Below, piece by piece: positions 1,297-51,441 of a stretch of DNA of 51,441 bases (position 1 is the first letter of the stretch; each line of letters opens with the position of its first letter). Both the position numbers and the translations under genes were made by a program. The notes below the pieces were generated by a model that saw only the letters and a program-made list of their open reading frames with translations, searched no databases and was not told the DNA's origin. The stretch is taken from NCBI GenBank assembly GCA_020350365.1, contig CP070712.1, positions 64,812 through 116,252 on the forward strand. The letters run 5' to 3'. The DNA is from Thermoplasmatales archaeon. GTDB taxonomy: Archaea; Thermoplasmatota; E2; DHVEG-1.

Positions 1297-2664
1297 ATGC
1301 ATGATAATATCCTTAAAAAATTATTGATCATAGGAATTTTCATATTGTTTGTTTTAGCAAGTACTATAACAAGTATCGGTGTAAAATATAATTCAAATCA
1401 AATTCTTCCGTTTGGAGATCCTTATTTTATATTGCTTAGTGACTACACTGATGGTGCTGGAGATGAAAATTTGTGGGCACTTCAACTCAGGTTTGACATT
1501 GACCTCGGTGTCGTTGAAAGTGAATTTGATAATAAATCCTTACCTCTTATTACTGATCAATGGGTGGAAATAAGAATTTACATAGACCTTAACAATGACT
1601 GGATGGAGATATATTATAATGGTGAACTATTGCACCAGAAGCTGTGGTCAGCAGGTCCTGATAACACAGGCCAGGGAATAGTAAACCTTAGTGCAGTAAA
1701 TCTGTTTAGCGACCTGCGAACTGCTGTTTACTTTGATGATTTAACCATTGAGGAGGTTGGAGGTGGGATTATCTGGTCAGATAACTTTGATTCGTACGAG
1801 GATGGAAGTTCCATTCACGGACAGGGTGGATGGAAAGGGTGGGATAACAATTCAGAATATTCTGCATATATCAGATCTCTTAAGAATCGGAGTTCTCCAA
1901 ATTCCTTAGAAATTAAAGCATTTTCAGATATTGTTCATGAATATTTTGGCAATTATTCAGGTGAGTTTGTCTATACTGCATGGATGTTTTTCCCAGAAAA
2001 CATAAAACCATACAGACCAGATATCAAAGGTCCTGAAAGCGGTGGTGTTGGAACTAAATATGATTATATATTTGATTCTATTGACCCTAATGGAGATGAT
2101 GTATACTACTATGTTGATTGGGGTGATGGTGAGGTTGTAGAATGGATTGGACCTTACGGCTCTGGTGAGGAAGTAAAAATTGATCATTTTTGGTCTGAGA
2201 AAGGTGAATATGAAATAAGGGCAAAGGCAAGAGATGCTCTCGATCTTGAAAGCGAATGGTCTGATCCTTTTTATGTTACTATTAGTAATCCACCCGCTGC
2301 ACCAGAAATTGATGGTCCACCAAGGGTGAGGGTAAACAAAGAGTATGAATTCAATTTTTACACAGTTGATCCTGATGGAGACGATGTAAAGTATTTTATT
2401 GACTGGGGTGATGGATATTACGGAGAAACTTATTTCTATCCTTCCGGCTCAAACATAAAGATAAAACATATTTGGTCAACTAAAGGTAACTTCACAATAA
2501 AGGCAAAAGCAATAGATGTTTACAATGCAGAAAGCAATTGGTCAAGTCTTGAGATAATTGTTCCTAAAGCAATAGAATCTTATTTCAACCTTAAAATCCT
2601 AAGTTGGCTTTATGAACTATCACCAAATGTTTTTAGAATAATTAAATACCTGTTTGGATTATGA
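1297..2664 (+). CDS. Secreted protein: N-terminal jelly-roll-like domain (paralogue of 43872..45866), two tandem PKD-like modules and a degenerate cassette tail
   Basis: Signal peptide MHDNILKKLLIIGIFILFVLAS. Two copies of the DP[ND]GDDV.Y.[VI]DWGDG...KA.A.D...ES.WS module (nt ~2008-2290 and ~2290-2560). Tail VPKAIESYFNLKILSWLYELSPNVFRIIKYLFGL*. Confidence 0.8.
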   Translation: MHDNILKKLLIIGIFILFVLASTITSIGVKYNSNQILPFGDPYFILLSDYTDGAGDENLWALQLRFDIDLGVVESEFDNKSLPLITDQWVEIRIYIDLNNDWMEIYYNGELLHQKLWSAGPDNTGQGIVNLSAVNLFSDLRTAVYFDDLTIEEVGGGIIWSDNFDSYEDGSSIHGQGGWKGWDNNSEYSAYIRSLKNRSSPNSLEIKAFSDIVHEYFGNYSGEFVYTAWMFFPENIKPYRPDIKGPESGGVGTKYDYIFDSIDPNGDDVYYYVDWGDGEVVEWIGPYGSGEEVKIDHFWSEKGEYEIRAKARDALDLESEWSDPFYVTISNPPAAPEIDGPPRVRVNKEYEFNFYTVDPDGDDVKYFIDWGDGYYGETYFYPSGSNIKIKHIWSTKGNFTIKAKAIDVYNAESNWSSLEIIVPKAIESYFNLKILSWLYELSPNVFRIIKYLFGL

Positions 2665-2691
2665 TTTAAATCAATTTTTTGGTGTTTTAAC

Positions 2692-2700
2692 TTTTTTTTT
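2692..2700 (+). terminator. Oligo-T tract (T9) downstream of 1297..2664
   Basis: T9 run about 30 nt after the stop codon, preceded by TTTTTT at ~2675. Archaeal-type oligo-T terminators are plausible here. Confidence 0.35.
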
Positions 2701-2775
2701 CATTTCAGATATTTTTTTATGGTTGATTCTCATTGGGGGTTTAGAAAAAACAATTTGTTGGGGTAAGGAAATAAT

Positions 2776-2892: not shown

Positions 2893-2960
2893 ATTTAATA
2901 TTTTTTTAAAAGAGCTTAATTTATTTTTCATTGATTCTTAAATTGAGGCAGGATGAGAAT

Positions 2961-3050: not shown

Positions 3051-3148
3051 ATACAGCTTAATATTAAAACTAATAATTATAATAATTTTCATTTTCAAAA
3101 CAAAACTTTATCAATACTATTTTGATACATAACTTGAGGAGATGGTAG

Positions 3149-4070: not shown

Positions 4071-5267
4071 ATGTCAATTGACCTTTCAGCCCAAAAAAAA
4101 TTTAAATATATACTCTTCACAAGCCTTTATTTTTCAGAAGGATTGTACCAGGCATTGATTCTAATTGTTACCCCTATCTATCTGATTGAAAAGGGTATTT
4201 CTTTACCACTGGTTACCTTAATTGCTGGCATTGGATATCTTCCTTGGGGACTAAAATTTGTATGGGGAGGAATCATTGATTTTTTTCATAAACATGGGCG
4301 AAAAAAGTTTGCTGTAGTTGGAACGATTGCAGGAGCCTTTGGTTTTTTTATTCTTTCTTTAATCGATCAATCTTTTTCAATTATATTTTTCACTTTATTT
4401 CTTTTGCTTGGATATGTAGGTATTGGCTTTCTTGATTCAGCTGCTGATGCCTGGGCAATTGATATATCAAAAAAAGAGGAACGCGGTAAAATTAATTGTT
4501 CTATGATTATTGGTAAATGGGTAGGTCAATATATTGGTGCACTCATAATTATATCTATTGCAGTTTCTTTTGGTTATAGTATCTCCTTTTTGGTATCTGG
4601 ATTATTGGTTCTTGTTTTAGTTATTGTTCCAATCAGCGTTAAATATGAGGATAGAAAGATTCATCAATTGCGGATATGGAAGTTGATTAGAACAGAATTC
4701 AAGAAAATAACAACAAAACTAACAACTCTTTATTTCTTAATAATCGTTCTTCAACATGCATTGTTTTTTACCTTTCTTGTTTTATATTTGAAGGTGGTCT
4801 TGGATCTTGATGATACCTATATTGGCATATTATTTGCATTATGGTTGGTTGTTGTTGTACCTGGATCTATTATAGGAGGTGTTCTTTCTGATAAATTTGG
4901 CAGGAAACGACCACTTTACTTCTTTTTAGTTTTGGTTTTGATTTTTTCAATAACACCTATATTTTTATCTGATTTTATTCATCTCATTATAAATTTCAGT
5001 ATCTTACTTTTTTTCTTGAATGGTGTAATTTCGGGGAATTGGGCAATGATTATGGATATAATAAACCCGAAAATAAGTGCATCTCAACATGAGATAATTT
5101 GCTCGATTGTCAATTTTGGAAGTATTATCATTGGTTCAGCGACAGGAACTCTTTTTGTAGTATTAGGTGCTGATAATATATTTATCCTAGTTGCATTACT
5201 AACTCTTCTTTCTATAATGATTTTGTATACAATAAAAGGTCTTGATAATATGAAATGGAACACTTAG
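4071..5267 (+). CDS. MFS transporter, AmpG/PAT-family-like
   Basis: 398 aa with about 12 predicted TM helices. AmpG-like N-terminal signature YFSEGL...GYLPWGLKFVWGGIIDF. Confidence 0.75.
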   Translation: MSIDLSAQKKFKYILFTSLYFSEGLYQALILIVTPIYLIEKGISLPLVTLIAGIGYLPWGLKFVWGGIIDFFHKHGRKKFAVVGTIAGAFGFFILSLIDQSFSIIFFTLFLLLGYVGIGFLDSAADAWAIDISKKEERGKINCSMIIGKWVGQYIGALIIISIAVSFGYSISFLVSGLLVLVLVIVPISVKYEDRKIHQLRIWKLIRTEFKKITTKLTTLYFLIIVLQHALFFTFLVLYLKVVLDLDDTYIGILFALWLVVVVPGSIIGGVLSDKFGRKRPLYFFLVLVLIFSITPIFLSDFIHLIINFSILLFFLNGVISGNWAMIMDIINPKISASQHEIICSIVNFGSIIIGSATGTLFVVLGADNIFILVALLTLLSIMILYTIKGLDNMKWNT

Positions 5268-6271
5268 AATGTATGACCACGACAGAGCGGGTCTTTATTT
5301 TTTAATATTTCAGGGACCATGAAGTTATATTTAAATACATTATAAGCACTAAAAAAATGATAATCATTTATTGAATTTGGAAAAGTTGTGGATAGATTCT
5401 CTATTATTGTTCGTAATTCTTGCATGTTTTTTAGGAGCAGTGTGAAATGAAGGTCCATATCCAGGTTTATGAATTTGAATCTGCGAATTAAATTAGGATT
5501 TTTACGCATATGTTCTATTATTTGATTTTTTTTACTATAATCTCTGAGACTAATTCTGAGATGAAAGAATCTATAGCCTAGTTTTGACCAATCGATATTT
5601 ATTGTATATAAACCTATGATTAATTCTTGTTCTAGTTTTTTTATCCTGTAATTGATGGTACTTACCGTTGATTTCAGCTTATTTGCAATATTTTTTGTTG
5701 AAATCCTGGCATTGTTTGAGAGTTCCTTTAATATTTTAAAATCCAATTCATCAATACAATAAAGTTTTTGTCCCCATATCCAGTTAATCAACATTTTTTT
5801 TGGCATGTCTTTTATCAAAAAAGAATAGTTATAGAACTCCCCTCTAAAAAAGAAATATGAGGATTGAAAGGAAAGATAAGAATAGAACTTTCCTCTAATA
5901 TCATCTAATAATTTTTCAAATTGTTGAGGTCTTCCCATATAGAAATCTGATTGGAGGTCATTGATTCCCTCGACAAGACTCACATACATTGTATGATTGT
6001 GTTTGATAAAAAAATCAAGGATTTCTTGTTTTATTTTTGGATTTATGTTAATGAATTTATAATGGGTTTGCATCAATGAATAACCTAATCTTTCGAAATT
6101 TATTATTATTGAAAAATTCATGATTATTTTATTTTTAAGCATTCTTTTTATCCTATAGGATGCAAGTTCTTTTGATATTCCGACTTTCTTTCCAAGACTT
6201 TTTAGGGATTGCCTGGAATTTTGTGTTAAATAAAACAATATCTTTTTGTCTTTTACATCAAGATCATACAT
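5264..6271 (-). CDS. Fused double Lrp/AsnC-family transcriptional regulator (two HTH + ligand-domain units in one chain)
   Basis: Two HTH_AsnC-like segments: DKKILFYLTQNSRQSLKSLGKKVGISKELASYRIKRMLKNKII and DFKILKELSNNARISTKNIANKLKSTVSTINYRIKKLEQELII. Each is followed by ~90 aa. 335 aa is about twice a normal Lrp. Paralogue of 32521..33489. Confidence 0.8.
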   Translation of the reverse strand: MYDLDVKDKKILFYLTQNSRQSLKSLGKKVGISKELASYRIKRMLKNKIIMNFSIIINFERLGYSLMQTHYKFININPKIKQEILDFFIKHNHTMYVSLVEGINDLQSDFYMGRPQQFEKLLDDIRGKFYSYLSFQSSYFFFRGEFYNYSFLIKDMPKKMLINWIWGQKLYCIDELDFKILKELSNNARISTKNIANKLKSTVSTINYRIKKLEQELIIGLYTINIDWSKLGYRFFHLRISLRDYSKKNQIIEHMRKNPNLIRRFKFINLDMDLHFTLLLKNMQELRTIIENLSTTFPNSINDYHFFSAYNVFKYNFMVPEILKNKDPLCRGHTF

Positions 6272-6440: not shown

Positions 6441-6480
6441 AAAAAATCAATATCTATTAAAACTTTAAGGTGTAAAAAAG

Positions 6481-6732: not shown

Positions 6733-7965
6733 ATGAAAATAAAAATATTTGTAATGACGCTGTTGATAACAATCGTTCTGATGACTGCAAGCGTTGTTTC
6801 TGCTTGTACAGGCTTTAATGCTTCTGAAGAAGATAATGTTTTAGTTGGTATCAATTTTGATTGGTCAAGAAATTTTGATGTATACATGAATGTTTACCCA
6901 GAAGCTGAAGGTAAATATGGAAGAATAATATTTGACATTTGGTGGCCATGGTTTGGTTTTGATTACACTCTTCCAATCCAGGGAATGAACGATCAAGGTT
7001 TATTTGTAGATACTTATATTACTCCAAGTCATACAGTTGATTATAGTGGAAATCCATTTTTTGAAAGTGGTGATCCTGAGTATTATAATTTTTCCCTATG
7101 GGCATATTGTCTAGCAAAATGTTCAACTATCTCAGAAGTTTTAGATGTATATCTCAATCAATATGATCAATTTTGGCCTGATGGGATATCTCAGGGTCAA
7201 GTGATGTTTGTTGATAGTAATGGAGATTCAATTATAATTGAAGATTATGATACAATAATTTTCAAAGGAGGAAATTTCCAGGTAGTTACAAACTTTTTAC
7301 AAAGTCAGCCGGAATTAGGTGGTTATCCATGTTGGAGGTATGATACTGCAGTAAGTATGCTTGAGAATATGACTGAACTATCTGTTGACTATTTCAGTGA
7401 GATTTGTGATGCAACAAATCTACCGACGACAATTTATTCAAATGTTTATGATCTGATTTTGGAGAAGATGTATATCTATTATAATAATGATTACACAAAA
7501 TACTTGGAGATTGACTTAAATGAGGAGCTTGCCAATGGAGCAAGTAGAGTTTTACTTGGTACTCTTTTTGATTTTGAGGAAAATGAACCTCCATATAAGT
7601 CAGAAATCCCTGATGGACCTACCACAGGTGTTCCTGAAATATATTATTTGTATAAATGTAATAGGACAAGTGACCCTGACGGAGATAGAGTTATGTATCT
7701 CTTTGATTGGGGTGATGAATCTGATTCCGGATGGATTTATACGGCAAGTAACATTGTTGAGGCAGAGCATAAATGGAATGACACTGGAAAATATCAAGTG
7801 AGGTTTAAGTCAATGGATATCTATGGTAGGGAAAGCGAATGGTCTGATTCATTATTAGTAAATATTCCAAGACCAAGAAGTGTACATCACCCATTTTTAT
7901 ACAGATTGTTTGAGAGGTTTCCAAATATCTTCCCCATAATTAGGTACCTGCTTGGATTTGACTGA
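6733..7965 (+). CDS. Secreted Cys-Ntn hydrolase (choloylglycine hydrolase / linear amide C-N hydrolase family) with PKD-like module and cassette tail
   Basis: The signal peptide ends ..VVSA|CTGF, exposing the N-terminal nucleophile Cys. GMNDQGLF motif. Module at nt ~7588-7878. Tail IPRPRSVHHPFLYRLFERFPNIFPIIRYLLGFD*. Paralogue of 34852..36120. Confidence 0.8.
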   Translation: MKIKIFVMTLLITIVLMTASVVSACTGFNASEEDNVLVGINFDWSRNFDVYMNVYPEAEGKYGRIIFDIWWPWFGFDYTLPIQGMNDQGLFVDTYITPSHTVDYSGNPFFESGDPEYYNFSLWAYCLAKCSTISEVLDVYLNQYDQFWPDGISQGQVMFVDSNGDSIIIEDYDTIIFKGGNFQVVTNFLQSQPELGGYPCWRYDTAVSMLENMTELSVDYFSEICDATNLPTTIYSNVYDLILEKMYIYYNNDYTKYLEIDLNEELANGASRVLLGTLFDFEENEPPYKSEIPDGPTTGVPEIYYLYKCNRTSDPDGDRVMYLFDWGDESDSGWIYTASNIVEAEHKWNDTGKYQVRFKSMDIYGRESEWSDSLLVNIPRPRSVHHPFLYRLFERFPNIFPIIRYLLGFD

Positions 7966-7975: not shown

Positions 7976-8204
7976 TTCTCTCTCTTTCTTCTTTTAGATA
8001 GTTGAACACTTCTTTTGCGTCAGATGAGAGTATCACTCTTATTATTAAACTCTTATCAATATCAAATTTGTTAAATGGGATTCTAGAAGAATAATAAATC
8101 TCTAATAATTTTTCCAATTTTTACAATAAAAATTTACATTTGTACAATTTTTTAATGAAAACTGTTATATTAACAATAAAATATTAAAAAAATTGTTAGA
8201 TAAT

Positions 8205-9794
8205 ATGAAAAATAAAATATTAGAAGTATTGATATTTACGCTTTTGATTTCTGCTACTTTTTTACATGTTGCAGGCCTTGAACTGCAAAAAACAAAGAAT
8301 TCAGCCTTAAGACCTGATATTGAATGGGAGAAGACATACGGTAGTTCCATGGTTGATTGGGGACGCTGCGTTCAACAAACCTCAGATGGAGGTTATATTA
8401 TAACTGGTGCCTATGACAGGAATGTCTATTCGCCCTGGTGGGGGTATATATATTTATTGAAAACTGATTCTGATGGTAATTTTGAGTGGGACCAGAAGTA
8501 TGGGATATATCAGTATGATAACCTTGGTAATTATGTTCAAGAAACCTCTGATGGAGGATACATAGTAGCAGGTCATACTGGTTTTACCTATCATATCGAT
8601 GCTTATATTTTAAAAACCGACCCCCTTGGTAATTATTCTTGGATCCGTGTTCTTGGTGAGTTTGATTATGCTGATGATAGTCTAAGTGTCCAAGAGACAA
8701 GTGACGGTGGATATATAATCTCTGGTTGGACTGGTTCCTATAGCGCGGGAAGCAGTGATGCATGGCTTATAAAGCTTAATTCAGATGGAGAGGATGAGTG
8801 GAACAAGACATTTGGAGGGAGCATGCTTGACACAGGAGACTCTGTCAAAGAGACCCTTGATGGTGGATTTGTAATTTGCGGTAGGACTGATTCCTTTGAT
8901 TCTTTTGGTAACGGGGATGCATGGCTTATAAAGACCGATATGTATGGTAATGAACTTTGGAACAAGTCCTATGGTGGGAATTATCTAGATTACGGTAAAA
9001 GTGTATTGCAAACTTCTGATGGCGGGTACGTCTTTTGCGGTTCGACTTATTCGTTTGGTGCAGGAAACCATGATGCATGGCTTGTAAGAACCGATATGTT
9101 TGGATATGAACTCTGGAACAAGACATTTGGTGGAAGCTTGTGGGACCAGGCAAATAGTGTTGTGGAAACCTCAGATGGTGGTTATTTCTTGACTGGGGAT
9201 TATACCGATCCTGTACAGGGTGATTCTGAAATGTACTTGGTAAAGACTGACTCTGACGGAAATGAAGAGTGGAGCTATATAATTGAACACGAAAGTAGGG
9301 GTGTAACTGATTCTGGTTCCTATGGGATTCAAACAAATGATGGAGGTTTTATTGCAACTGGAGAAACCGGTGAATATAATTTGGCCCTGGTTGATATTTT
9401 GCTTGTAAAATTAGAAGGTTCAAATCAAGCACCAAGTGCGCCAGAAATTAATGGTCCTGTAAACGGGAAGACTGGTGTGTCCTATGAATACGGGTTTGTT
9501 TCAATTGACCCGGATGGTGATGATATAGCTGAATATATCGTTGACTGGGATGACGGGTCTAGAATAGAGATAATTTTTGGTCCTTTTGCATCCGGTGAGG
9601 AGATTGCTTTAAATCATACATGGGCGAAGCAAGGGTCCTATACAATTACAGCAAAAGCAAAAGACATCAATGGTTTAGTTGGCCTAAAAGGAACATTTGA
9701 TGTAAGCATTCCAAGAGGTAGAATGTTTCAAAACATACTATTGTTTAGATTGCTAGGGCGATTTATAGATGCTCTTTTTCTTTATTTTCAATAA
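8205..9794 (+). CDS. Secreted seven-repeat beta-propeller-like protein with PKD-like module and divergent cassette tail
   Basis: Seven repeats of ..[QE]T[SL]DGG[YF]...G......DAWL[IV]KTD..GN..W.K.[FY]GG. Module at nt ~9423-9722. Tail IPRGRMFQNILLFRLLGRFIDALFLYFQ*. The ORF track starts at TTG 8193; ATG 8205 (MKNKILEVL...) is the more likely start. Confidence 0.8.
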   Translation: MKNKILEVLIFTLLISATFLHVAGLELQKTKNSALRPDIEWEKTYGSSMVDWGRCVQQTSDGGYIITGAYDRNVYSPWWGYIYLLKTDSDGNFEWDQKYGIYQYDNLGNYVQETSDGGYIVAGHTGFTYHIDAYILKTDPLGNYSWIRVLGEFDYADDSLSVQETSDGGYIISGWTGSYSAGSSDAWLIKLNSDGEDEWNKTFGGSMLDTGDSVKETLDGGFVICGRTDSFDSFGNGDAWLIKTDMYGNELWNKSYGGNYLDYGKSVLQTSDGGYVFCGSTYSFGAGNHDAWLVRTDMFGYELWNKTFGGSLWDQANSVVETSDGGYFLTGDYTDPVQGDSEMYLVKTDSDGNEEWSYIIEHESRGVTDSGSYGIQTNDGGFIATGETGEYNLALVDILLVKLEGSNQAPSAPEINGPVNGKTGVSYEYGFVSIDPDGDDIAEYIVDWDDGSRIEIIFGPFASGEEIALNHTWAKQGSYTITAKAKDINGLVGLKGTFDVSIPRGRMFQNILLFRLLGRFIDALFLYFQ

Positions 9795-14176: not shown

Positions 14177-14668
14177 ATGAAAAGAAAAATATTGGTTATA
14201 ATGATTTGTATATTTTTTATTACCACAGCAGCCTCTGTTTCAACAATAGCAATTAAATGTGAAAGAAAACCTGTTGCACATACTACTAAGGAAAATTCAC
14301 CACCTGATATCCCAACAGTTGAGATTCCTGAAAATGTGGCAAGAGGTCATTGGATTTATATAAATACAGTTACTACTGATCCTGATAATGATAATGTCTA
14401 TTATAAATATGACATCGATGGGCATGATTATGGATGGGTAGGTCCTTTTGAATCTGGTAAGGAACATATTGAAAAGATTATTGTCATAGTTCCTGTCGGA
14501 ACCTATACTTTAGGTGTTCAAGCAAAAGACACATATGGAGCAGAAAGTGAATGGACTTATGCTCTTTTTAATGTAATTAAACCAAGATCAGTTTCATCAC
14601 CTTTTATCAATTTCTTACAAAGTCATCCAAACCTGTTCCCAATGTTAAGATACATTCTAGGACTTTAA
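14177..14668 (+). CDS. Minimal cassette-only secreted protein (signal peptide + short linker + PKD-like module + tail, 163 aa)
   Basis: MKRKILVIMICIFFITTAAS signal. Module ..NSPPDIPTVE..TTDPDNDNVYYKYDIDGHDYGWVGPFESG..AKDTYGAESEW. Tail IKPRSVSSPFINFLQSHPNLFPMLRYILGL*. AAGGAGG RBS. Confidence 0.75.
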   Translation: MKRKILVIMICIFFITTAASVSTIAIKCERKPVAHTTKENSPPDIPTVEIPENVARGHWIYINTVTTDPDNDNVYYKYDIDGHDYGWVGPFESGKEHIEKIIVIVPVGTYTLGVQAKDTYGAESEWTYALFNVIKPRSVSSPFINFLQSHPNLFPMLRYILGL

Positions 14669-41322: not shown

Positions 41323-43767
41323 TTATCCAAATCTTAAAATGTATCTTAGTATCGGAAATATATTTGATAATCTTTCAAACAATAATAAAAATAAATTATT
41401 GAATGTCAGTCTTGTTTCCAAAGTGTTTGATGATCTAGATTTAGGCCATTGGTTTATCAATGGATAATTGTCCTTGTTTTGCCCACCATCAATCTCATAA
41501 GGGGTGTCCCAAATACCTTTAAATGGTAGTTTTTTCGCATCAGGATACTTAGCAGTATAATCAGACCAATAGTTCCCATACTTTCCATCATCCCAGCTAT
41601 TATTTAAATCATCAAATGCGTTTTGTGAGTTGTTTATAAAGTTATTATGAAATATTGAGTTATAATATGCTTGATTTACAAGTTCTATACCAAGGGAATT
41701 ATCAAATATATTATTGTCGATGATTTTATTATACTTGCATAAATGTCTATCCTCACCAGAGAGTTTAATACCACAGCTATTGAGGCTTACATTGTTACCA
41801 ATTAATGTGTTTTCACTGCTATCTTTAAGAATCACTATACCGTTATCATCGTTTCCTGATATATTATTACTAGAGATATTGTTATTTTTGCAACTTGAAA
41901 AGAAGATACCATCTACATTTTTTAAAATATGATTGTCCATAATTGAGTTGTTATCAGACGAATAAGAAAGTATGCCATTAATACCTTTTGAAATAAAGTT
42001 ATTTTTTATTTTGTTTCTTTCTGAATTAATAAATGTTATGCTTCTTATATTTTCCAAAAGAATGTTTTCAATTATGTTGTTGTTATAGGCTTTTTCTAGA
42101 TAAATGCCATCTCTATTATTCATAATTGAATTTCTTAAGATTTGGCTGTTATTGGTGCCAAACATCCATACTCCAATTGCCGTATTTGATAGATCTTGAT
42201 TTTGAATGTTTATATTATCGCAATTTATAAGAAAAATCTGTCCTGCAGTATCTATTGTGACATCAGATTCATCCTTAAGAAATATTAAAGGTTTTCCATT
42301 AACTTCGTTATTTTGGACGTTATTTTCAATTGATTCAGATGTGATATAAAGACCATCATTAAAGAAAGAATTATTTGAAATTATGTTATTTTCAGAGTTA
42401 TAGATGTATAATCCATCAATATTTTCTGAGAGTATATTGTTTGAAATAGAGTTATTTTTACTTAATAAATAGATTTGTATGCCATTTTCATAATTTGAAG
42501 AAATGTAATTACTATCAATAGTATTATTATTACAGTGATATCCTAAACCTAATCCTTTGTTATTGTTTGAAATGTTGTTATAATATATTTCATTGAAACT
42601 AGAGTAATGTAGTCTTATACCATCGTCGTTCTTAGATATGAAATTATTTGATATATAATTAAAATAACAATCGAAAAATGAGATACCCTCGCTATTATTA
42701 TAATTAGAAGAAATGATATTTTCAGAGATAACATTTCTATTTGAATCTACTAAATCTACACCTTCATATCTGTTATTCAATATTTTATTTCCTTTAATTG
42801 TATTGAAATTTGAATTGTAGAGCTCTATTCCTTCATAATTGTTTGAAATATTATTTGCAATTATAGTGTTAGTGTCTGAGTACTCAAGGCCAATACAGGT
42901 AAATCTGCACAAGGAAAGATCATTATTTAAGATGGTATTATTATTGGAGTGAAAAACTACTATATTAAAAAACTTGTTATTGGAAAATTCACTTCCTATT
43001 ATCTTGCTATTATTTGTATTAAAAAGCTCTATTCCAACATCTATGTCAGATAAATTTAGGTTCTCAATTGTAATATCATCGCAGCTTGATAGAATAACTT
43101 GACCTGCATCTAAAATTACCTTTTCAGACTCACCTTCTAGATAAACAAGAGGTTTATCATTAACTGTATTATTCTCTACAATATTATTATATGATTGATA
43201 AACAAATAGCCCGTTATTATAAAAAGTGTTTCCTGATAATTTATTATAGTTACTATTATTATATAAAAATACACCGAGACGGCTTTTAGAAATGACATTA
43301 TTAAGAATATAGTTATAACTGGAAGATTCAAAAACTATACCATATCCATTATTTATGATATTGTTTTCAATAATTATGTTGTAGTTTGATAATATATTTA
43401 TTCCTGCAGTAGTATTGGAATCATCGCAATACTCGATTGAAAATCCACTGATATTTACCCAATCAGCATTAACCAATATTCCCGTACCATTTCTACTACC
43501 ATTAATAATTGTAGTATATTTATTTTCTCCTATCAGACTTATAGATTTATTAATTACGATATTTTCATGATATACTCCACTAGGAATATATATTGCGTCT
43601 CCATCAGAGGCATTGTCTATTAAATCTTGGATATATCCACGAGATTTTGAAAGATTAAGATTTACCTTTTCTATTTTTAAGCCTATAGTTTGAGGAATCA
43701 CAGCAGTTAAAGTAAATAATAAAAATATTACAAGAGCAAGCCCCTTTATAATTAATTTATTTTTCAT
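41323..43767 (-). CDS. Secreted right-handed parallel beta-helix (NosD-like) repeat protein with cassette tail but no PKD-like module
   Basis: IQDLIDNASDGDAIYIPSGVYHENIVINKSISLIGE, then about 25 N/I/S-rich beta-helix repeats. The C-terminus is ..NYPLINQWPKSRSSNTLETRLTFNNLFLLLFERLSNIFPILRYILRFG*. Paralogue of 18810..21113. Confidence 0.85.
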   Translation of the reverse strand: MKNKLIIKGLALVIFLLFTLTAVIPQTIGLKIEKVNLNLSKSRGYIQDLIDNASDGDAIYIPSGVYHENIVINKSISLIGENKYTTIINGSRNGTGILVNADWVNISGFSIEYCDDSNTTAGINILSNYNIIIENNIINNGYGIVFESSSYNYILNNVISKSRLGVFLYNNSNYNKLSGNTFYNNGLFVYQSYNNIVENNTVNDKPLVYLEGESEKVILDAGQVILSSCDDITIENLNLSDIDVGIELFNTNNSKIIGSEFSNNKFFNIVVFHSNNNTILNNDLSLCRFTCIGLEYSDTNTIIANNISNNYEGIELYNSNFNTIKGNKILNNRYEGVDLVDSNRNVISENIISSNYNNSEGISFFDCYFNYISNNFISKNDDGIRLHYSSFNEIYYNNISNNNKGLGLGYHCNNNTIDSNYISSNYENGIQIYLLSKNNSISNNILSENIDGLYIYNSENNIISNNSFFNDGLYITSESIENNVQNNEVNGKPLIFLKDESDVTIDTAGQIFLINCDNINIQNQDLSNTAIGVWMFGTNNSQILRNSIMNNRDGIYLEKAYNNNIIENILLENIRSITFINSERNKIKNNFISKGINGILSYSSDNNSIMDNHILKNVDGIFFSSCKNNNISSNNISGNDDNGIVILKDSSENTLIGNNVSLNSCGIKLSGEDRHLCKYNKIIDNNIFDNSLGIELVNQAYYNSIFHNNFINNSQNAFDDLNNSWDDGKYGNYWSDYTAKYPDAKKLPFKGIWDTPYEIDGGQNKDNYPLINQWPKSRSSNTLETRLTFNNLFLLLFERLSNIFPILRYILRFG

Positions 43768-43841: not shown

Positions 43842-43882
43842 AAAAAAATAAAAAAAAGAGAGATTGGATTATTAAAATCCAA
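43842..43882 (-). terminator. Hairpin spanning the stop codon of 43872..45866 plus an oligo-U tract (minus strand)
   Basis: Minus-strand RNA: UUGGAUU-UUAAU-AAUCCAA (43882-43864), then UCUCUCUUUUUUUUAUUUUUUU. A similar TCTCTCTTTTT.TTTTATTTTTT block follows 46026..47561. Confidence 0.45.
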
Positions 43883-45866
43883 ATAGGTTTCTTAGTACCG
43901 GAAATAGATTCGGGAACCGTTCAAAGAATCTTAGAAGCAATGGATGTAATGCCGCTCTTCCGCGTGGAATTGTAACTTCAAAAGTGCTATCAGCACTTGT
44001 TGCTCCTCTTTCATCCTCGGCACTTGCAGTTATTGTGTACGTTCCATCTTCTTCATAGGTGTGACATACTTCTACCGGTGTACATGATGGATTAAAGTCT
44101 GTCTCTTCAGAGTTTCCATCTCCCCAGTCTATTACGTATTTTACCTGGTGTCCATTGGGATCATCTGAGTGAAATGTCCAGCAAAGTTCAACACCTGCTG
44201 CACCTTTGTCCGGGCCATCAATATCCGGTGCGGTGGGAGCTTCATTTGGCTCTTCCTCTGTTGTGAAACTCCATTCAGGACCTGATGTAGTTTCACCCTG
44301 GCTGTCTTCTGATACAATCTGCCAGTAGTATGTTGTCCCCAATTCCATTGTGCCTGGATCATATGCTGTTTGGGTTAGATCTTCCTCTACCAGTGGTGGA
44401 GGACTACTTGTACCAAAGTACACATCATAGGTCACTGTATCACCAACATTTGGGTCTCCTCCGGTCCATTTAAGTATCTCATCTATTGATACATCAGTTG
44501 CACCGTTTGGAGGTTCAGGAGCTGTTGGTGCAAACGGAGGTGCGTTTTCCTCAGTTGAAAAGATCCAAACTGGTCCAGTTGCTGAAAAATCAAAAATGTC
44601 CCATGAAACAATCTGCCAGTAATATGTTGTATCAAAATCAAGTAATCCTGGGTCGTAGGACGTACCTGATTGATTACTAACAACCTGTGGCGGAGGACTG
44701 GTCGTTCCAAAGTAAACATCATAAAGAACAGTGTCACCGTCGGGATCTCCACCCGTCCAGCTTACAACAACATTGATTTCATTATCAATGGAGCCATCTC
44801 CTGGACTTGGATTGCTTGGTTCGTAAGGTGCATCGTTAGTTCTAGTTGTAAAGCTCCAAACAGGGCCAGATTTCGAAAGATTTTTTTCATCGTATGCTAC
44901 AATCTGCCAATAATAGGTGATACCAAAATCAAGACCATCTGGATCATAAGAGGTGTCGGTTTGATTTTCTGATACAAGCACATCAGGTGTGGAGTCACCT
45001 TCTTCAAGAAATACATTATAGGTAACGTTATCATCATTTGGATCTCCCCCGGTCCAACTTAGATTTGTCAGGGGTGAAACATCTGTTGCCCCGTCACTTG
45101 GGTCTGGATCGCTTGGCTCATAAGGCGGTTCATTTTCAGGAATATACATCCATGCGATATACACATACTCACCAGAGGTATAACCTGAGTATTCATGAAC
45201 AAGATCAGAATCATTTGCAATATCAACAGAATGAGGTGAACTGCGACTATTAGCAGAAGTTACATTTGCAGTATATTGGGAGTCATTGTACCAACCCTTC
45301 CATCCTCCTTGGCCATGCATTGAACTGCCATCCTCATATGAGTCAAAGTCCTCAGACCAGAGAACGCCTTCTCCAACCTTAGAAAGACTTATGTCGTCAT
45401 AATAGACGGTAGAAGCAGAGTTTGCAAAAAGATCAACTGCAGCAATATTTAGTATGCCATTTCCACCACCATTGGGTTCTGCTGTCCATTCTTTTTCATG
45501 CAATAGGTCATCATCGTAATACATCTCCAACCAGTCAGAGTCAAGGTCGATATTTATCTTGATTTCCACCCATTCATCTGTTATAAGTGGTAAGGTTGCG
45601 TCATCAAACTCACTCTCAACAATTTGCTCCTCACTATCAAATCTCATTTGAACTGCCCAGGTGTTACCTGTTCCCGAGTCAGAATAGTTGCTCAACATAA
45701 TGAAATACGTTTCACCTGTAAAAAGAGGCTCAACCAAGGGTTTATCAGAAATCATTAATTCATATTCTGATATGTTTTCAGCACCGATACAAGGTATGCT
45801 ACTAGCTCCAACAAAAAGGACAATTATAACTAAAACTAGTCCTTTCTTTAATTTTCCAATTTTCAT
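43872..45866 (-). CDS. Secreted protein: jelly-roll-like N-domain (paralogue of 1297..2664), three FN3-like repeats, Cys-containing variant of the PKD-like module and cassette tail
   Basis: The N-domain is ~55% identical by eye to 1297..2664 (..WSEDFDSYEDGSSMHGQGGWKGW..). Three ~95-aa repeats P.P.[ND]G[AS].DV....L.WTGGDP..D.V.YDVYFGT..PP......T.YDPG....TTYYWQIV. Module GVELCWTFHSDDPNGHQVKYVIDWGDG. Tail IPRGRAALHPLLLRFFERFPNLFPVLRNLFGF*. Confidence 0.85.
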   Translation of the reverse strand: MKIGKLKKGLVLVIIVLFVGASSIPCIGAENISEYELMISDKPLVEPLFTGETYFIMLSNYSDSGTGNTWAVQMRFDSEEQIVESEFDDATLPLITDEWVEIKINIDLDSDWLEMYYDDDLLHEKEWTAEPNGGGNGILNIAAVDLFANSASTVYYDDISLSKVGEGVLWSEDFDSYEDGSSMHGQGGWKGWYNDSQYTANVTSANSRSSPHSVDIANDSDLVHEYSGYTSGEYVYIAWMYIPENEPPYEPSDPDPSDGATDVSPLTNLSWTGGDPNDDNVTYNVFLEEGDSTPDVLVSENQTDTSYDPDGLDFGITYYWQIVAYDEKNLSKSGPVWSFTTRTNDAPYEPSNPSPGDGSIDNEINVVVSWTGGDPDGDTVLYDVYFGTTSPPPQVVSNQSGTSYDPGLLDFDTTYYWQIVSWDIFDFSATGPVWIFSTEENAPPFAPTAPEPPNGATDVSIDEILKWTGGDPNVGDTVTYDVYFGTSSPPPLVEEDLTQTAYDPGTMELGTTYYWQIVSEDSQGETTSGPEWSFTTEEEPNEAPTAPDIDGPDKGAAGVELCWTFHSDDPNGHQVKYVIDWGDGNSEETDFNPSCTPVEVCHTYEEDGTYTITASAEDERGATSADSTFEVTIPRGRAALHPLLLRFFERFPNLFPVLRNLFGF
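44259..45134 (-). repeat. Three tandem ~285-nt intragenic repeats encoding FN3-like domains
   Basis: aa 245-341, 344-438 and 440-536 of the 43872..45866 product align along their whole length. Confidence 0.7.
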
Positions 45867-46025: not shown

Positions 46026-47561
46026 CTACATTATACCTAGTACATCTCTAAATATTTTAGACATAAAAGGAAATCGTTCAATCAATTGTAGAAATACTGA
46101 GTGATACACTGTTCTAGGTCTTGGTATTTCAACCTCAAGTGTACTTTCCGTGCTCTCTGCACCCCAACAACAGTCCTTTGCTATTGCTTTTATGATGTAT
46201 GTACCTCTTTCTGCATAAGTATGGCATACTTCAATTGGTACGCAAGAAGGCTTACATTCTGTTGTATCGGTTGATCCATCTCCCCAGTCAATAATATACT
46301 GTACAGGGTCTCCATTTGGATCGGTCGAATGGAATGTCCAGCATAATTCTACTCCTTCTCCTCCTTTATTGGGTCCATCGATTATTGGAGGTGATGGCGG
46401 TTTGTTTTCATAAGCATGAACCCATGCCCAGTCCCAATCATAAACATAATAGGGTTCACAATCACTGTATGCCTGAACTTCAACGTAGTTGGGATCAACG
46501 CTACAATCTGGGCCCTCAACATGTGCTGTAACGTATATCTCAATAGTATTACATGGGTCTAGCGGTCCAGGGAAATACCAATATATGTAATAATATGGCG
46601 GATCATAATACCATTCATCAGGTTCAGGATCTGAACTAATGTATTTTAGACTGTCATGCATCATATCCCCAACAAATATATCATATAGCGCACCGCAGCA
46701 TTCTCCATTGTTATGGATGACTATCTTAAATTGCACATCTGTACATATTGGTAAGTCAATGGCCTCAGCCTCAGTGTCAGCATCGATCCAACCTTGTGCA
46801 CATGGGTCCCAAACATATTTCTCAACATCAACACTTGGTTCACAACCCTCGTCTGAGGTCAATTGAAAGGCCATATCAAAGTCATAACCTTGTACTTCGA
46901 ATCCAGGAGTCCAGAATGTATATCCAAAGTAGTCTGATCCCCAAACTGCTGGAGATAATTGATAAGTTTCATGGGCACCCCAACCAGATTGTGGTGGATA
47001 CTGGCCTTCAGCCCAAATACTTATCCAGAACTTCTCACAACCGTAAAATGTTATAGTTTCTGGTAAATCCACTGAGAGTTCATAATATATGCTTGTACCT
47101 GTATCTTCAAGAACTTCCTTGGTTATTTCATCCCACGTGAAGCAGTATGGACCTGCATAAGTAGGAGTTTGTGGATGACCATCTGGTGATTCTCCAGTAC
47201 CATCGTCATACATAAAAGAGATGCACCAGTCAAAAGCACCAATATCATAATCTGTGCCCCAATAACCACCGACCCAATGCACATCTAAAACAGTTGTGTC
47301 TTCGTCAAAGTGGAAGTCATCTGCTACATAAGAATCAAAATCTATAGATTCATCCCACTGTGTGGCCATTAGATTTTCATATTCCATACCATTGTCCCAA
47401 ACAACTGAACCAATGGCACCTGGAGCTTGTCCACTCCCTTCAATTTTCGTTTTTGGAGTTTGAAAATCATCAGTTTCTGCTATCACAGAAGTTGATAATA
47501 TCATGGATAGTGCTATCACTAGAACAATAGCTTCTTTTATAAAATATTTTCTTTTGTCCAT
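46026..47561 (-). CDS. Secreted hypothetical protein (Cys- and aromatic-rich N-region, CARDB/DUF11-like middle) with the Cys-containing PKD-like module variant and a divergent cassette tail
   Basis: Signal peptide. Module GVELCWTFHSTDPNGDPVQYIIDWGDGSTDTTECKPSCVPIEVCHTY. Tail IPRPRTVYHSVFLQLIERFPFMSKIFRDVLGIM*. GGGGAGG RBS. Confidence 0.8.
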   Translation of the reverse strand: MDKRKYFIKEAIVLVIALSMILSTSVIAETDDFQTPKTKIEGSGQAPGAIGSVVWDNGMEYENLMATQWDESIDFDSYVADDFHFDEDTTVLDVHWVGGYWGTDYDIGAFDWCISFMYDDGTGESPDGHPQTPTYAGPYCFTWDEITKEVLEDTGTSIYYELSVDLPETITFYGCEKFWISIWAEGQYPPQSGWGAHETYQLSPAVWGSDYFGYTFWTPGFEVQGYDFDMAFQLTSDEGCEPSVDVEKYVWDPCAQGWIDADTEAEAIDLPICTDVQFKIVIHNNGECCGALYDIFVGDMMHDSLKYISSDPEPDEWYYDPPYYYIYWYFPGPLDPCNTIEIYVTAHVEGPDCSVDPNYVEVQAYSDCEPYYVYDWDWAWVHAYENKPPSPPIIDGPNKGGEGVELCWTFHSTDPNGDPVQYIIDWGDGSTDTTECKPSCVPIEVCHTYAERGTYIIKAIAKDCCWGAESTESTLEVEIPRPRTVYHSVFLQLIERFPFMSKIFRDVLGIM

Positions 47562-47855: not shown

Positions 47856-50543
47856 ATGAAGAGAAGTTTTAGAAATAAAATAATGATATTCTTAATTACG
47901 TCTTTTTTTGTGATGCTGTCGTTTTCACCAGCACAAGAATTACCTGAGATTGATAAAAATATTGAAACTTATACAAGTAAAACAGGTGATATCATTGTTG
48001 GGGAAAAAATTGATCCAATTTACTATGGTCAAGGTTATGTAGAACATATGGATGAATGTATCGCTCGAGACCAACTGACGCGATCTGAATCAAACGCTGA
48101 TTACGATGATTTAACAAGTCAGCATGGTAACTGGGTAGTGCCCTCTCGAGAAGCAAGTTATTATCCTTACTCAGGTGAGCACTATATTATAAACAAATAT
48201 GGTGATACAATGATGGGTATTTCATTTCCTACAGATGTTGATGTGCATGGTGCTTGGTTTGCAGGTCAAGGTGGAGGAGAAGGTGTATGGACTGAAAGTT
48301 TACGAGTAATTGGATATCTAAATGGTGAAAATACACAAATCACTGATTGGTTTGATTACATTGATGATACTCCTTCATGGTTTGCAATGAACCTTCAAGA
48401 TGTTGACAGAATCATTATAGAAGCAACCCCAACTTATAATGGAGGAGGTTGGTATGGGTTGGATGATTTAACCTATACTCCTAGTATAGAAGGCGAACAA
48501 GAAGACTCTGAAACAATAGTAATTGATTTTGAGGATTGTTCTTACGATCAAAACCTCGACAGTTCAATCTATGCAGATTTGACATGGGAAACTGGAACAG
48601 GTAGTTTATACATTTCAATGGATGAAAAGTCTTCATCTCAAGAATCACTAAATTCTGATAATAATGAGATATATACTGCAGGCTCTCAAGATAAGGGCAA
48701 TACAATAGCACCTCTGTTACAAAATAATTTTCAAGGAGTTATTAGAGGTGATGCAGGTTCTTGGTCTTATCCACCTGACTCCTGTGGGGCTGCTGGTATA
48801 AACCATTATGTCGAGGTAGTTAACAGAAACTTTGCTGTATATAATAAAACCACGGGTGAGGAATTGATAAACATACTATTGGGTTCTTTTTTACCAGAGA
48901 GTAATGGTGATCCACGGGTCCTTTATGATCAATACAGTGGTCGCTGGTTTGTTATTGTTTGCGACTTCAATACCAAACTCTTTTTAGCTGTTTCAATGTC
49001 TGAAGATCCCACTGAGGAATGGTTCAAGTGTGATTTTGTGGTCTCACAAGGTAGTGATGCAGGAAAATGGCCAGATTATCCGACACTCGGTGTTGATGAA
49101 GTAGGTGTTTATACTGCTGCATATATGATAGGTGGAGGTAATGGTATGAGTATTTTTGCCCTTGATAAGGCTCCATTAATTGCATCAGAGCCCAGCTTGG
49201 GCGATATATATGCATTTCGGGAACTGCCCTGGGAAGGTGCTATTCAGCCTGTGCATACATTTGGTACAACAGAAGGAGAATATTTTGTTTCACGAATGTC
49301 ATCTACGGGTATACGTGTGCGTCTATTGACAGATCTGCTCACCGAACCTACCCTAACTGAACTGGGATATGCAACAGTTCCAGTACATTATTCCCCACCA
49401 GATGCTCCAGCATTAGGTAGTACTGTACCACTTGATACCGTTGGACACCGTCTGATGAATGCGGTATATCGTGATGGATATATCTGGACTGCACATTGCA
49501 TAGATGTTGATGGAAGAGCTGCAGCCCGCTGGTATAATATAAGTGTCACTGGACCAACACTTTCTGATTATGGAACAGTAAGTGATCCAGTGATGTACTA
49601 TTTCTTTCCAACAGTTATGATAAATGCAATAGGAAATGTAATCATGGGTTTTTCTGGATCCCATGCTGGTCAATATGGAGCTGCATACTACACAGGTAGG
49701 CTTGCAAGTGACCCGCCCGGCGAGATGGGCCCTCCTATCTTATTAAAGGAAGGGGAGGATACGTATAATCTGATAGATGGTTATGGACGAAATCGATGGG
49801 GTGATTACAGTCTTTGCTCACTTGATCCTACAAATGAATACACCCTTTGGACTATACAAGAATATGCACACTCACATAATAGCACAGGAGAAAACCGCTG
49901 GGGAACATGGATAGGGGAATTTGATTATGGAAACAGGCCTCCTTGGAAACCTACAATTGATGGGCCAACAAATGGAACCACAGGCTCCTCTTATGAATAT
50001 AAATTCAGTTCGGAAGACCCTGATGCTGATGAAGTCTATTACCTAATTGATTGGGGAGATGGAACAACAAGCGACTGGATAGGGCCATATTCATCCGGAG
50101 AAGAGATTACAGAAAGCCATTCATGGGACGTAGTAGGAGAATATGAGATAATTGCGAAATCAAAGGATAATTTTTCTGAGAGTGACTGGTCAGACCCATT
50201 TGCTGTAAGCATAGCGCCTTTGTTTGAGATAGACTCGATAAATGGAGGATTTTTTAGAGTAAAAGCTGTCCTTAGAAACAATTTAGATGAAGAGCTTACT
50301 TGTGTGAAGTGGAACATTACTCTTGAAGGCGGTGCATTTATTGGTAAACAATCATCTGGTGAGATAGATATTCCAAGTTGTGGGGAGGCAACCATAAAAT
50401 CAGGATTGATTCTTGGATTTGGAGAAACAAAGATAACTGTGACTGCTGAAGTTCCAGGTTGTTTTGACACAATGTCAAGAGGTGGATTTGTATATGTATT
50501 TTACATCAATGTAAACATTGGAGGTAAGCAATTATATAGATAA
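47856..50543 (+). CDS. Large secreted hypothetical protein (895 aa) with an internal PKD-like module followed by an extra ~105-aa beta domain in place of the cassette tail
   Basis: Signal peptide. Module at nt 49932-50219 (SSYEYKFSSEDPDADEVYYLIDWGDGTTSDWIGPYSSGEEITESHSW..SDWSDPFAVSIAP). No P-R-x-[RK] and no FERFPN tail. Confidence 0.8.
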   Translation: MKRSFRNKIMIFLITSFFVMLSFSPAQELPEIDKNIETYTSKTGDIIVGEKIDPIYYGQGYVEHMDECIARDQLTRSESNADYDDLTSQHGNWVVPSREASYYPYSGEHYIINKYGDTMMGISFPTDVDVHGAWFAGQGGGEGVWTESLRVIGYLNGENTQITDWFDYIDDTPSWFAMNLQDVDRIIIEATPTYNGGGWYGLDDLTYTPSIEGEQEDSETIVIDFEDCSYDQNLDSSIYADLTWETGTGSLYISMDEKSSSQESLNSDNNEIYTAGSQDKGNTIAPLLQNNFQGVIRGDAGSWSYPPDSCGAAGINHYVEVVNRNFAVYNKTTGEELINILLGSFLPESNGDPRVLYDQYSGRWFVIVCDFNTKLFLAVSMSEDPTEEWFKCDFVVSQGSDAGKWPDYPTLGVDEVGVYTAAYMIGGGNGMSIFALDKAPLIASEPSLGDIYAFRELPWEGAIQPVHTFGTTEGEYFVSRMSSTGIRVRLLTDLLTEPTLTELGYATVPVHYSPPDAPALGSTVPLDTVGHRLMNAVYRDGYIWTAHCIDVDGRAAARWYNISVTGPTLSDYGTVSDPVMYYFFPTVMINAIGNVIMGFSGSHAGQYGAAYYTGRLASDPPGEMGPPILLKEGEDTYNLIDGYGRNRWGDYSLCSLDPTNEYTLWTIQEYAHSHNSTGENRWGTWIGEFDYGNRPPWKPTIDGPTNGTTGSSYEYKFSSEDPDADEVYYLIDWGDGTTSDWIGPYSSGEEITESHSWDVVGEYEIIAKSKDNFSESDWSDPFAVSIAPLFEIDSINGGFFRVKAVLRNNLDEELTCVKWNITLEGGAFIGKQSSGEIDIPSCGEATIKSGLILGFGETKITVTAEVPGCFDTMSRGGFVYVFYINVNIGGKQLYR

Positions 50544-50592
50544 CTAAACATTAGATTCTTAAGAATAAAAATAAAAAAGGAGAATTTGGTAA

Positions 50593-51441
50593 TTAGAAAC
50601 CTAATAGGTATCTAACTACCGGAAATGCATTTGACGATCTTTTAGAGAACAACTCTAGTAAATTTAGTTTAATATTGCTGGATTTGAATCTTGGCATGTT
50701 TACTTCCAATGTCGCCCAATCGCTTTCTGCACCATTTGTATCTACTGCTTTTGCTTTAATTAAATATGTTCCTCCTTCAGTCCATATATGTTTTACATTT
50801 GCATCATTACCAGACGCAACATAGTCAGTCCACTCGGAATTGTTGTCCCCCCATTCGATATAAAATTTGACATCGTCACCTTCGGGATCTGCTGAGTTGA
50901 ATGTATACTCATATTCTTCTCCAGTTTTTCCACTTGTCTTCCCATCGATTGTTGGCACTTCCGGTGGCTCAGAAAGCCTCTCTGCATCAGTAGGCCAACT
51001 CAATCCAGTTGTTTGCCAAACGACTGTACCATTAGTGTCAATCTCAAAAACACCATTTCCCATATATAGCTCTGTTATGAGTGTGTTACCATTTGCAAGT
51101 CTTTCAGCATCAAATGTTAAACCCGTACTGAGATAGTCCCAGATAATAGTACCACTGTTATCAATCTCGATTATGAAATTCTCATACGAGTATAAGGTAA
51201 TAAGTGTATTTCCATTTGCTAGTCTCTCTACATCAACTGGGAAGTTACAGGCATATTGCCATACAATTGCTCCGCTATTATCTACTTCAATAATACGATC
51301 TGCCGCTGTTTCTGCTATCAGTGTATTGCCGTTAGAAAGCCGCTCTGCATCAACCGGCATATTCAATCCATCTTTAAGCCAGACAATCGAACCTGCGCTG
51401 TTTACTTCAATTACACGATCCATATAGGCATCGGAAATAAG
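50593..51441 (-). CDS. Secreted beta-propeller-like repeat protein with PKD-like module and cassette tail; 5' end truncated by the window edge
   Basis: Repeats ..I.E[IV]D.[SN]G..[IV]W......P.D[AV]ERL[SA]NGNTLI. The frame stays open to nt 51441 (LISDAY upstream of the track's Met). Module YEYTFNSADPEGDDVKFYIEWGDN. Tail MPRFKSSNIKLNLLELFSKRSSNAFPVVRYLLGF*. Confidence 0.8.
   Translation of the reverse strand, partial: LISDAYMDRVIEVNSAGSIVWLKDGLNMPVDAERLSNGNTLIAETAADRIIEVDNSGAIVWQYACNFPVDVERLANGNTLITLYSYENFIIEIDNSGTIIWDYLSTGLTFDAERLANGNTLITELYMGNGVFEIDTNGTVVWQTTGLSWPTDAERLSEPPEVPTIDGKTSGKTGEEYEYTFNSADPEGDDVKFYIEWGDNNSEWTDYVASGNDANVKHIWTEGGTYLIKAKAVDTNGAESDWATLEVNMPRFKSSNIKLNLLELFSKRSSNAFPVVRYLLGF

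Follow-up and report, generated by a model that had tools for sequence, protein, structure and literature searches.

A C-terminal tail without a transmembrane segment as a candidate localisation signal of Thermoprofundales (MBG-D) archaea and related Thermoplasmatota

Why should so many exported proteins of one archaeon, differing widely in their N-terminal domains, finish on the same short peptide? The question is raised by a 51.4-kb stretch of contig CP070712.1 (hereafter the window, by which we mean the whole of the DNA analysed; G+C content ~31%), where genes for exported proteins are unusually dense and where a common tail with the consensus LFERFPNxFPxLRYLLG closes 14 open reading frames (ORFs), the stop codon following 0-3 residues later. 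The host is a Thermoprofundales (Marine Benthic Group D; hereafter MBG-D) archaeon; the window is syntenic, at 79-83% amino-acid identity, with the metagenome-assembled genome (MAG) SG8-52-3, which we take to belong to MBG-D/Thermoprofundales. One window protein, sought by exact look-up among public assemblies, gave no record. A first-pass annotation had already picked out the 14 tails, and both the observation and its coordinates proved exact. Strictly C-terminal and unable to span the membrane, the tail is a portable signature of Sec-exported proteins; it is confined to one archaeal lineage and subject to strong purifying selection.

A strictly C-terminal tail on exported proteins

The distribution of the tail was assessed by scanning the pattern [FL]ERFPNxFP[IV] over one genome per GTDB species, a strict pattern whose counts are lower bounds. 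There were 157 matches, of which 141 were confirmed, and the best 80 of these come from 26 assemblies. These 80 loci are labelled Thermoplasmatota, Thermoplasmatales, Thermoplasmata or Euryarchaeota, save for two sources, a MAG labelled Methanobacteriota and a contig labelled 'Pirellulales'. The latter (L075, CAZIKS010000184.1) bears a canonical tail and was binned into a 'Pirellulales bacterium' MAG, which most likely reflects a binning error and not a bacterial occurrence. Single genomes hold at least 8-20 carriers among the best 80 loci alone, and a further copy is carried by EMR74854.1 from AB-540-F20, the original single-cell genome of MBG-D.

The tail had been described as strictly C-terminal, and this is borne out. 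All 14 window copies are terminal; 90 of the 95 tail matches in the 80 loci lie within 6 residues of the stop codon; and a HMMER search over 1.84 billion cluster representatives returned 1808 clusters with the tail at E <= 1e-3 (300 at E <= 1e-10), the best 150 of which all have matches ending within 7 residues of the C-terminus. Among 351 unique tails, 89% end no more than 3 residues from the C-terminus, and no internal or clearly cytoplasmic occurrence was seen among the carriers of the window and its relatives. The only clear case with a longer extension, of ~28 residues after the tail motif (L048:380-1690, ...FPILKQMLGLLNKIISLPFLNPQKEETNPSNTFSLFLV), may be due to a stop codon that was read through or frameshifted, or may be a genuine internal copy.

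When the 14 window tails were made into a profile and compared with the six-frame translation, only those 14 ORFs were matched, each at the very C-terminus; scores ranged from 40 to 60 bits in 13 ORFs and fell to 25 bits in ORF 8193-9794, and the next match had E = 0.08. As such a test is circular, a second, independent profile was built from 267 tails outside the window. It recovered 12 window tails at E <= 3e-6, that of ORF 21992-24193 at 1.3e-3 and that of ORF 8193-9794 only at 0.023, noise beginning at E = 0.055. Thirteen of the tails are thus solid and one, in ORF 8193-9794, is degenerate; a frameshift was rejected as the cause of this degeneration, as none restores the canonical sequence.

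A hydrophobic, signal-peptide-like N-terminal segment is present in all 13 window carriers with a complete N-terminus and in 78 of 87 complete carriers; 3 more are borderline, and the rest are ORFs with doubtful starts or masked sequence. The signal peptides earlier attributed to the carriers therefore found their counterpart wherever N-termini were checked. The proteins themselves are diverse. Those of the window include three C25 peptidases, a C10 peptidase, two Ntn/C45-like hydrolases, two NosD proteins and two propellers, together with one DUF7901 protein, one Ig-repeat protein, one tandem-PKD protein and one minimal carrier of 163 amino acids (ORF 14177-14668) that consists only of signal peptide, PKD module and tail; further minimal carriers of this composition occur in relatives (P0030, P0046). 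Two peptidases of the window, a C11 clostripain and a fourth C25, are tail-less. Among the 72 complete carriers of relatives, Pfam recognised PQQ/propeller domains in 14, C25 in 8 and NosD in 5, as well as M14, C1, Kelch, FG-GAP, CBM96 and others; since no Pfam family is common to all 72, Pfam holds no model of the tail. The presence of the tail on many unrelated ectodomains (peptidases, hydrolases, beta-helices, propellers, CBM96) is thereby upheld. The carriers had been called unrelated in their N-terminal domains without distinction; this is correct between groups only, because these domains include paralogue groups, namely the three C25, the two NosD and the two Ntn/C45-like proteins.

Table 1. 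Coordinates of the tails and PKD modules in the window (canonical, divergent and degenerate refer to the tail).
ORF	Strand	PKD module	Tail	Protein	Remarks
1297-2664	+	1975-2280 and 2266-2559 (tandem)	2560-2661		Junction VPKAI; divergent, YELSPNVFRIIKYLFGL
6733-7965	+	7558-7863	7864-7962	Ntn/C45-like hydrolase	Canonical; orthologue in SG8-52-3, 79% identity
8193-9794	+	9390-9707	9708-9791		Degenerate; first helix retained, second half gone
11877-13091	-	11985-12278	11880-11984	Peptidase_C10	
14177-14668	+	14261-14665 (with tail)	14261-14665 (with module)		HPNLFP subtype; junction IKPRS
18810-21113	-	18918-19220	18813-18917	NosD/beta-helix protein	
21992-24193	-	22094-22399	21995-22093	Propeptide_C25 + Peptidase_C25	
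24480-26366	+	25959-26264	26265-26363	Peptidase_C25	
29690-31912	+	31496-31807	31808-31909	Peptidase_C25	
34852-36120	+	35704-36015	36016-36117	Ntn/C45-like hydrolase	Canonical; module and tail modelled with AlphaFold2
41323-43767	-	none	41326-41448	NosD beta-helix	Tail directly behind beta-helix; junction WPKSR
43872-45866	-	43971-44279	43875-43970	Ig-repeat protein	
46026-47561	-	46128-46451	46029-46127	DUF7901	Second half of tail divergent
50593-51441	-	50698-51003	50596-50697	beta-propeller	N-terminus cut by window end

The similarity of the tails is kept at the protein level, since about half of the comparisons show a different codon for an identical residue (arginine, for example, appears as AGG, CGA, AGA and CGG); recent duplication or gene conversion was rejected as its source on this ground. 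Two conserved subtypes can be distinguished, LFERFPNxFPILRxLLGL and FL[EQ]xHPNLFPILRxLLGL. Profile scores reach 79 bits, to be compared with the curated cut-offs of ~20-24 bits for Loki-CTERM and Heimdall-CTERM. Beyond these subtypes, the ends of PKD proteins in the same Thermoplasmatota form a continuum of amphipathic tails with looser sequences, for example ..LERFPLLEKLLNL.. and ..PLFFQILQRLMNIR. In many of these proteins (P0017-P0135, P0283-P0396) the shared MP[KR]N[KR] junction is followed by a short, non-canonical amphipathic tail, for instance ..WFLERFPMLEKLLNLIR or ..SSNPLFFQILQRLMNIR; the canonical tail is thus one member, the best conserved, of a wider set.

Whether a curated '-CTERM' model already covers the tail had been left open by the first-pass annotation; there is none in Pfam or NCBIfam. 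Whole carriers gave no match to the tail in NCBIfam release 20 or Pfam, nine isolated window tails retrieved no NCBIfam family at E <= 10, and ten isolated tails of relatives gave no sorting-domain match at the same limit, their two matches being chance-level (E 0.13-0.2) and to unrelated families. ORF 17341, used as positive control, was matched by Heimdall-CTERM at 19.9 bits (cut-off 24) and by Loki-CTERM at 14.4 bits, both below threshold. The tail strings were not found in a full-text literature search over 8.3 million papers, and the Thermoprofundales genome papers describe peptidases and make no mention of the tail. We file the tail as an undescribed C-terminal localisation signal, without transmembrane segment, of MBG-D and related Thermoplasmatota, and the PKD module as already known.

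The PKD module, the junction and the predicted structure

The module in front of the tail is an ordinary PKD domain, of known fold and with a solved homologue. Most window modules exceed the gathering score of Pfam PF18911 PKD_4 or PF00801 PKD (for example 39.7 and 34.2 bits in ORF 43872, 43.1 in ORF 1297, 37.1 in ORF 21992), and a few lie just below the cut-off, such as that of ORF 6733 with 24.9 bits. The last 128 residues of ORF 34852-36120 were modelled with AlphaFold2, and the top Foldseek match of the modelled module is PDB 4XED (39% identity, root-mean-square deviation 1.2 Å over 97 residues, target-normalised TM-score 0.92; profile E = 1e-37), the PKD domains of ColG and ColH being matched by profile as well. 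The protein in 4XED is the PKD domain of an M14-like peptidase from Thermoplasmatales archaeon SCGC AB-540-F20, which belongs to the same archaeal group (MBG-D). Because the crystallised construct stops at ...LEVTMPK, exactly at the junction, the tail is structurally uncharacterised. No paper describing the 4XED structure was found in the literature search, where the strings 4XED and AB-540-F20 occur incidentally only.

Module and tail had been taken together as one cassette. Their succession holds in most carriers, as the module lies directly upstream of the tail in 277 of 288 relatives of at least 150 amino acids, but it is absent there in 11, and the two parts are separable. In the window, ORF 41323-43767 bears the tail without any PKD module, and only the last of the two tandem modules of ORF 1297-2664 precedes the tail.

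A PKD-like module is also found at an internal position (49905-50210) in ORF 47856-50543, which encodes an exported protein of 895 amino acids. This protein has no tail and ends in a different, beta-rich domain of ~100 amino acids (~50226-50540). Domains of the same type close neighbours of carriers in relatives (loci L046, L043, L057, L004 and L017), and may constitute a second, alternative C-terminal localisation module.

The junction between module and tail is less constant than first thought. A P[KR]x[KR] motif is present in 12 of the 14 window proteins, ORFs 1297-2664 and 14177-14668 being without it, and the P-R-x-[RK] junction had been described as nearly invariant; this proved to be a local feature, as the motif is found in 59% of the 351 unique tails and 18% lack basic residues there altogether (MPVNQQ and MPFSYEPP are examples). 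On these figures, Arg/Lys-directed processing at an obligatory site is unlikely, and an obligatory dibasic cleavage site was set aside as an explanation.

In the AlphaFold2 model (mean predicted local distance difference test score, pLDDT, 93.5), the PKD sandwich occupies residues 1-95 with pLDDT 97-99 and is followed by the linker PRNRES (96-101) at ~69, which suggests that the segment before the tail is flexible and accessible. The tail itself is predicted, at pLDDT ~85, as a helix (102-114, ILSFNLLEWIFERF), a Pro-Asn kink and a second helix (118-125, FPIIRYLI). It is aromatic-rich and moderately amphipathic, with a mean hydrophobic moment of 0.62 against 0.50 in shuffled sequences for an 11-residue window, and of 0.45 against 0.32 for an 18-residue window.

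Membrane spanning is another matter. The maxima of Kyte-Doolittle hydrophobicity over 19 residues are 0.4-1.4 in the tails, compared with 2.2-2.7 in the signal peptides and 2.25 in the PGF-type anchor of ORF 17341-18744. The summed Hessa insertion free energy (ΔG) of the window tails is +6.5 to +13.8 kcal/mol, that of the PGF-type end of ORF 17341 being +1.45; over 355 tail matches in relatives and window the median is +12.8 kcal/mol and none falls below +2. A terminal basic cluster is absent, the tails ending in ...LLGL, ...LLGF or ...LIGQ. Hydrophobicity, insertion energy and this lack of basic residues all agree with the earlier view that the tail is not an anchor made of a transmembrane helix and a basic cluster.

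These properties bear on the comparison with the tripartite signals. PGF-CTERM with its archaeosortase A, PEP-CTERM, Loki-CTERM and Heimdall-CTERM resemble the tail in being short, lineage-specific, located at the extreme C-terminus of unrelated Sec-exported ectodomains and present in many copies per genome. The tail is nevertheless set apart from this family, because transmembrane helix, terminal basic cluster and model match all fail. Its basic residues stand before and not after the hydrophobic part, and its conserved core is much longer.

Retention at the cell surface and competing readings

The most economical function, inferred with confidence that is about evenly balanced, is retention at the cell surface: in Thermoprofundales (MBG-D) and related Thermoplasmatota the tail would be a lineage-specific signal for it, acting by non-covalent binding. 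Carriers would be exported by the Sec pathway through their N-terminal signal peptide, and their last 20-25 residues would form two short helices separated by a Pro-Asn kink, aromatic-rich and moderately amphipathic, behind a flexible and usually basic linker. The tail would keep the enzyme on the cell surface by settling into the interfacial region of the membrane's outer leaflet, by binding a conserved envelope partner, or by both, while the PKD domain would act as a stalk keeping the catalytic domain away from the surface. The basic linker might possibly also be a release site for the cell's own Arg/Lys-specific peptidases.

The continuum of short amphipathic tails indicates a shared biophysical role and, taken with the basic linker, fits direct interfacial membrane binding in the manner of PBP5/PBP6. 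These penicillin-binding proteins of Escherichia coli (DacA/DacC) are Sec-exported enzymes whose C-terminal ~20 residues form a helix-bend-helix; this peptide keeps them on the outside of the cytoplasmic membrane and does not span it. Unlike the tail, such anchors do not form a conserved, portable motif that recurs on dozens of unrelated proteins, and a PKD stalk is missing. In sediment, where diffusion is limiting, it pays a cell to keep its enzymes attached. Extracellular peptidases of families C25, C11 and C10 are abundant and transcribed in MBG-D archaea (PMC6461988; PMC9585477).

Two observations weigh against retention by membrane binding. The amphipathicity of the tails is only moderately above that of shuffled sequences, 15-21% of which reach the observed value. 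Moreover, the core ERFPNxFPILRxLLGL shows far higher conservation than amphipathic anchors in general and stands at a fixed distance from the free C-terminus; plain lipid binding fits this combination less well than recognition by a protein, which could be a receptor or an enzyme that processes the tail. The first-pass annotation had proposed a sorting signal or a removable propeptide; sorting or anchoring agrees with the evidence, whereas a conserved dibasic processing site does not.

If a processing enzyme were the recognising protein, the tail would belong to a sortase-type system, which we consider unlikely. A dedicated membrane or surface enzyme would recognise ERFPNxFPILRxLLG, cleave in or near the linker and attach the protein covalently to a lipid or an envelope polymer, following the logic of sortase/LPXTG, archaeosortase/PGF-CTERM, PorU and the C-terminal domain (CTD) of the type IX secretion system (T9SS), or the glycosylphosphatidylinositol (GPI) transamidase, minus the usual transmembrane helix. 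The very high information content of the 17-residue core, with its scores of up to 79 bits, the fixed distance to the C-terminus, the number of carriers per genome given above and a basic linker in 59-66% of tails are all in keeping with such an enzyme, for which a C25 peptidase (clan CD) lacking module and tail would be a candidate. Secreted peptidases of this kind repeatedly adjoin carriers, which is suggestive because PorU and GPI8 are clan-CD transpeptidases, but the adjacency is weak evidence because C25 genes are abundant in these genomes anyway. Known enzyme-processed prokaryotic signals all have a transmembrane segment, the T9SS CTD excepted, the variable junction offers no universal cleavage motif, and the enzyme is a candidate only. 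A recurrent non-carrier partner was sought in the window, in the 80 loci and in a 20-kb stretch of a complete chromosome, and no membrane-enzyme candidate emerged; the recurrent neighbours are only C25 peptidases without cassette, a transposase-like family and other exported proteins. That the tail serves as recognition signal for an archaeal sorting machinery yet to be described, one that needs no transmembrane segment and is possibly a C25-type (clan-CD) transpeptidase like PorU or GPI8 fixing MBG-D peptidases covalently to the envelope, appears unlikely.

The closest bacterial parallel in cargo is the T9SS CTD (Por_Secre_tail), processed by PorU, on the gingipains of Bacteroidota: as in the carriers, a C-terminal Ig-like beta-sandwich is borne by C25 peptidases and many other secreted enzymes, and the CTD serves surface attachment. 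That system is bacterial, depends on an outer membrane and has no helical tail, whereas here the module is a bona fide PKD domain and the recognition element would be the tail and not the sandwich. Por_Secre_tail gave no NCBIfam or Pfam match on 20 window proteins, and the host is a Thermoplasmatota archaeon.

A receptor as the recognising protein would lead to a docking peptide, through which carriers would bind a common scaffold or S-layer protein non-covalently and build a multi-enzyme array at the surface, in the style of dockerin and cohesin. The tail shares with dockerins the status of a common C-terminal module on diverse secreted hydrolases, being one short and highly conserved element; conserved polar residues (E, R, N, R/Y) lie inside its helices, and the existence of proteins reduced to signal peptide, PKD and tail (ORF 14177-14668, P0030, P0046) would suit such an arrangement. 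A dockerin is, however, a duplicated, calcium-binding EF-hand of 60-70 residues, far larger than the tail, and no cohesin-like partner was found here: in the window and the 80 flanks nothing was seen that had repeated binding modules and could act as a receptor. A single specific receptor is also made less likely by the continuum of tails with looser amphipathic sequence, and we hold docking to be improbable.

Less probable still, and in our view a slim prospect, is a removable propeptide with a role in latency or folding and none in localisation, which C25 or C11 peptidases of Arg/Lys specificity would remove at the basic junction. The P[KR]x[KR] motif where it occurs (12 of 14 window proteins, 59% of relatives), the gingipain-like and clostripain-like peptidases encoded alongside and the low model confidence of the linker, which suggests accessibility, can be cited for it. 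Yet the tail is also borne by non-enzymes and folds that need no activation (propellers, beta-helices, PKD-only proteins), 18% of linkers are without any basic residue, and there would be no need for a propeptide to keep one fixed, conserved stretch of 17 residues on proteins that are unrelated.

An ordinary transmembrane anchor at the C-terminus, or a tripartite signal resembling PGF-CTERM, to which a hydrophobic-looking C-terminal segment on exported proteins might point, has next to no chance of being correct and was rejected, as hydrophobicity and insertion ΔG contradict it, the core holds two Pro, Glu, Arg, Asn and Arg, no basic cluster terminates it and no CTERM model of NCBIfam matches even at E <= 10, whereas the tripartite ORF 17341 does match Heimdall-CTERM and Loki-CTERM.

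Other features of the region and significance

Several genes around the carriers deserve mention. The C25 peptidases without cassette (~455 amino acids; no propeptide domain, PKD or tail; ending in ...GDPSLK[IV]GGYS) are encoded in the window at 36299-37672 and in the loci L007, L015, L021 and L041, and two such genes stand in tandem at L081:12874-15623 on chromosome CP070724.1. Such proteins could act as soluble peptidases, or be candidates for the processing enzyme. ORF 17341-18744 encodes a PQQ-type beta-propeller with a classical tripartite end made of APGFEG, a transmembrane helix and RNKNR, so that the organism probably has an archaeosortase-type system alongside that of the tail. ORF 14727-15911 (394 amino acids, no Pfam match) has an N-terminus ending in ...LLTGC that resembles a lipobox, and this putative lipobox would be a third route of surface attachment in the region.

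The C11 clostripain-family gene 33620-34855, which lacks the tail, overlaps by 4 nt the start of the tail-bearing ORF 34852-36120, suggesting co-transcription and translational coupling. Two paralogous regulators (5264-6271 and 32521-33489), each with two Lrp/AsnC-type helix-turn-helix domains, are found in the window and another at L033:472-1479; they may control exported hydrolases. The segment 5264-7965, comprising the first regulator and the adjoining carrier, keeps its gene order in MAG SG8-52-3 at 79-83% identity. Finally, ORF 38585-39583 encodes an exported protein of 332 amino acids whose repeats weakly match the C-terminal trimerisation beta-helix of phage T4 gp5 (23 bits, below the cut-off).

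MBG-D/Thermoprofundales rank with the most abundant archaea of marine sediments, where their proposed role is the degradation of buried protein by exported C25, C11 and C10 peptidases. The tail sits on such peptidases and on dozens of other exported proteins per genome, and this shared tag suggests that the enzymes of MBG-D are attached to the cell and not freely released, which would change how enzyme kinetics in sediments are read. With a profile of the tail, sequence alone would suffice to define the surface proteome of a lineage that is uncultured, and the profile could serve immediately as an annotation tool, and the tail peptide (NFNLLSWLFERFPNAFPILRYLLGL) is small enough for direct work on binding, localisation and C-terminomics. 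The archaeal repertoire would thus gain a type of C-terminal localisation signal that has no transmembrane segment.

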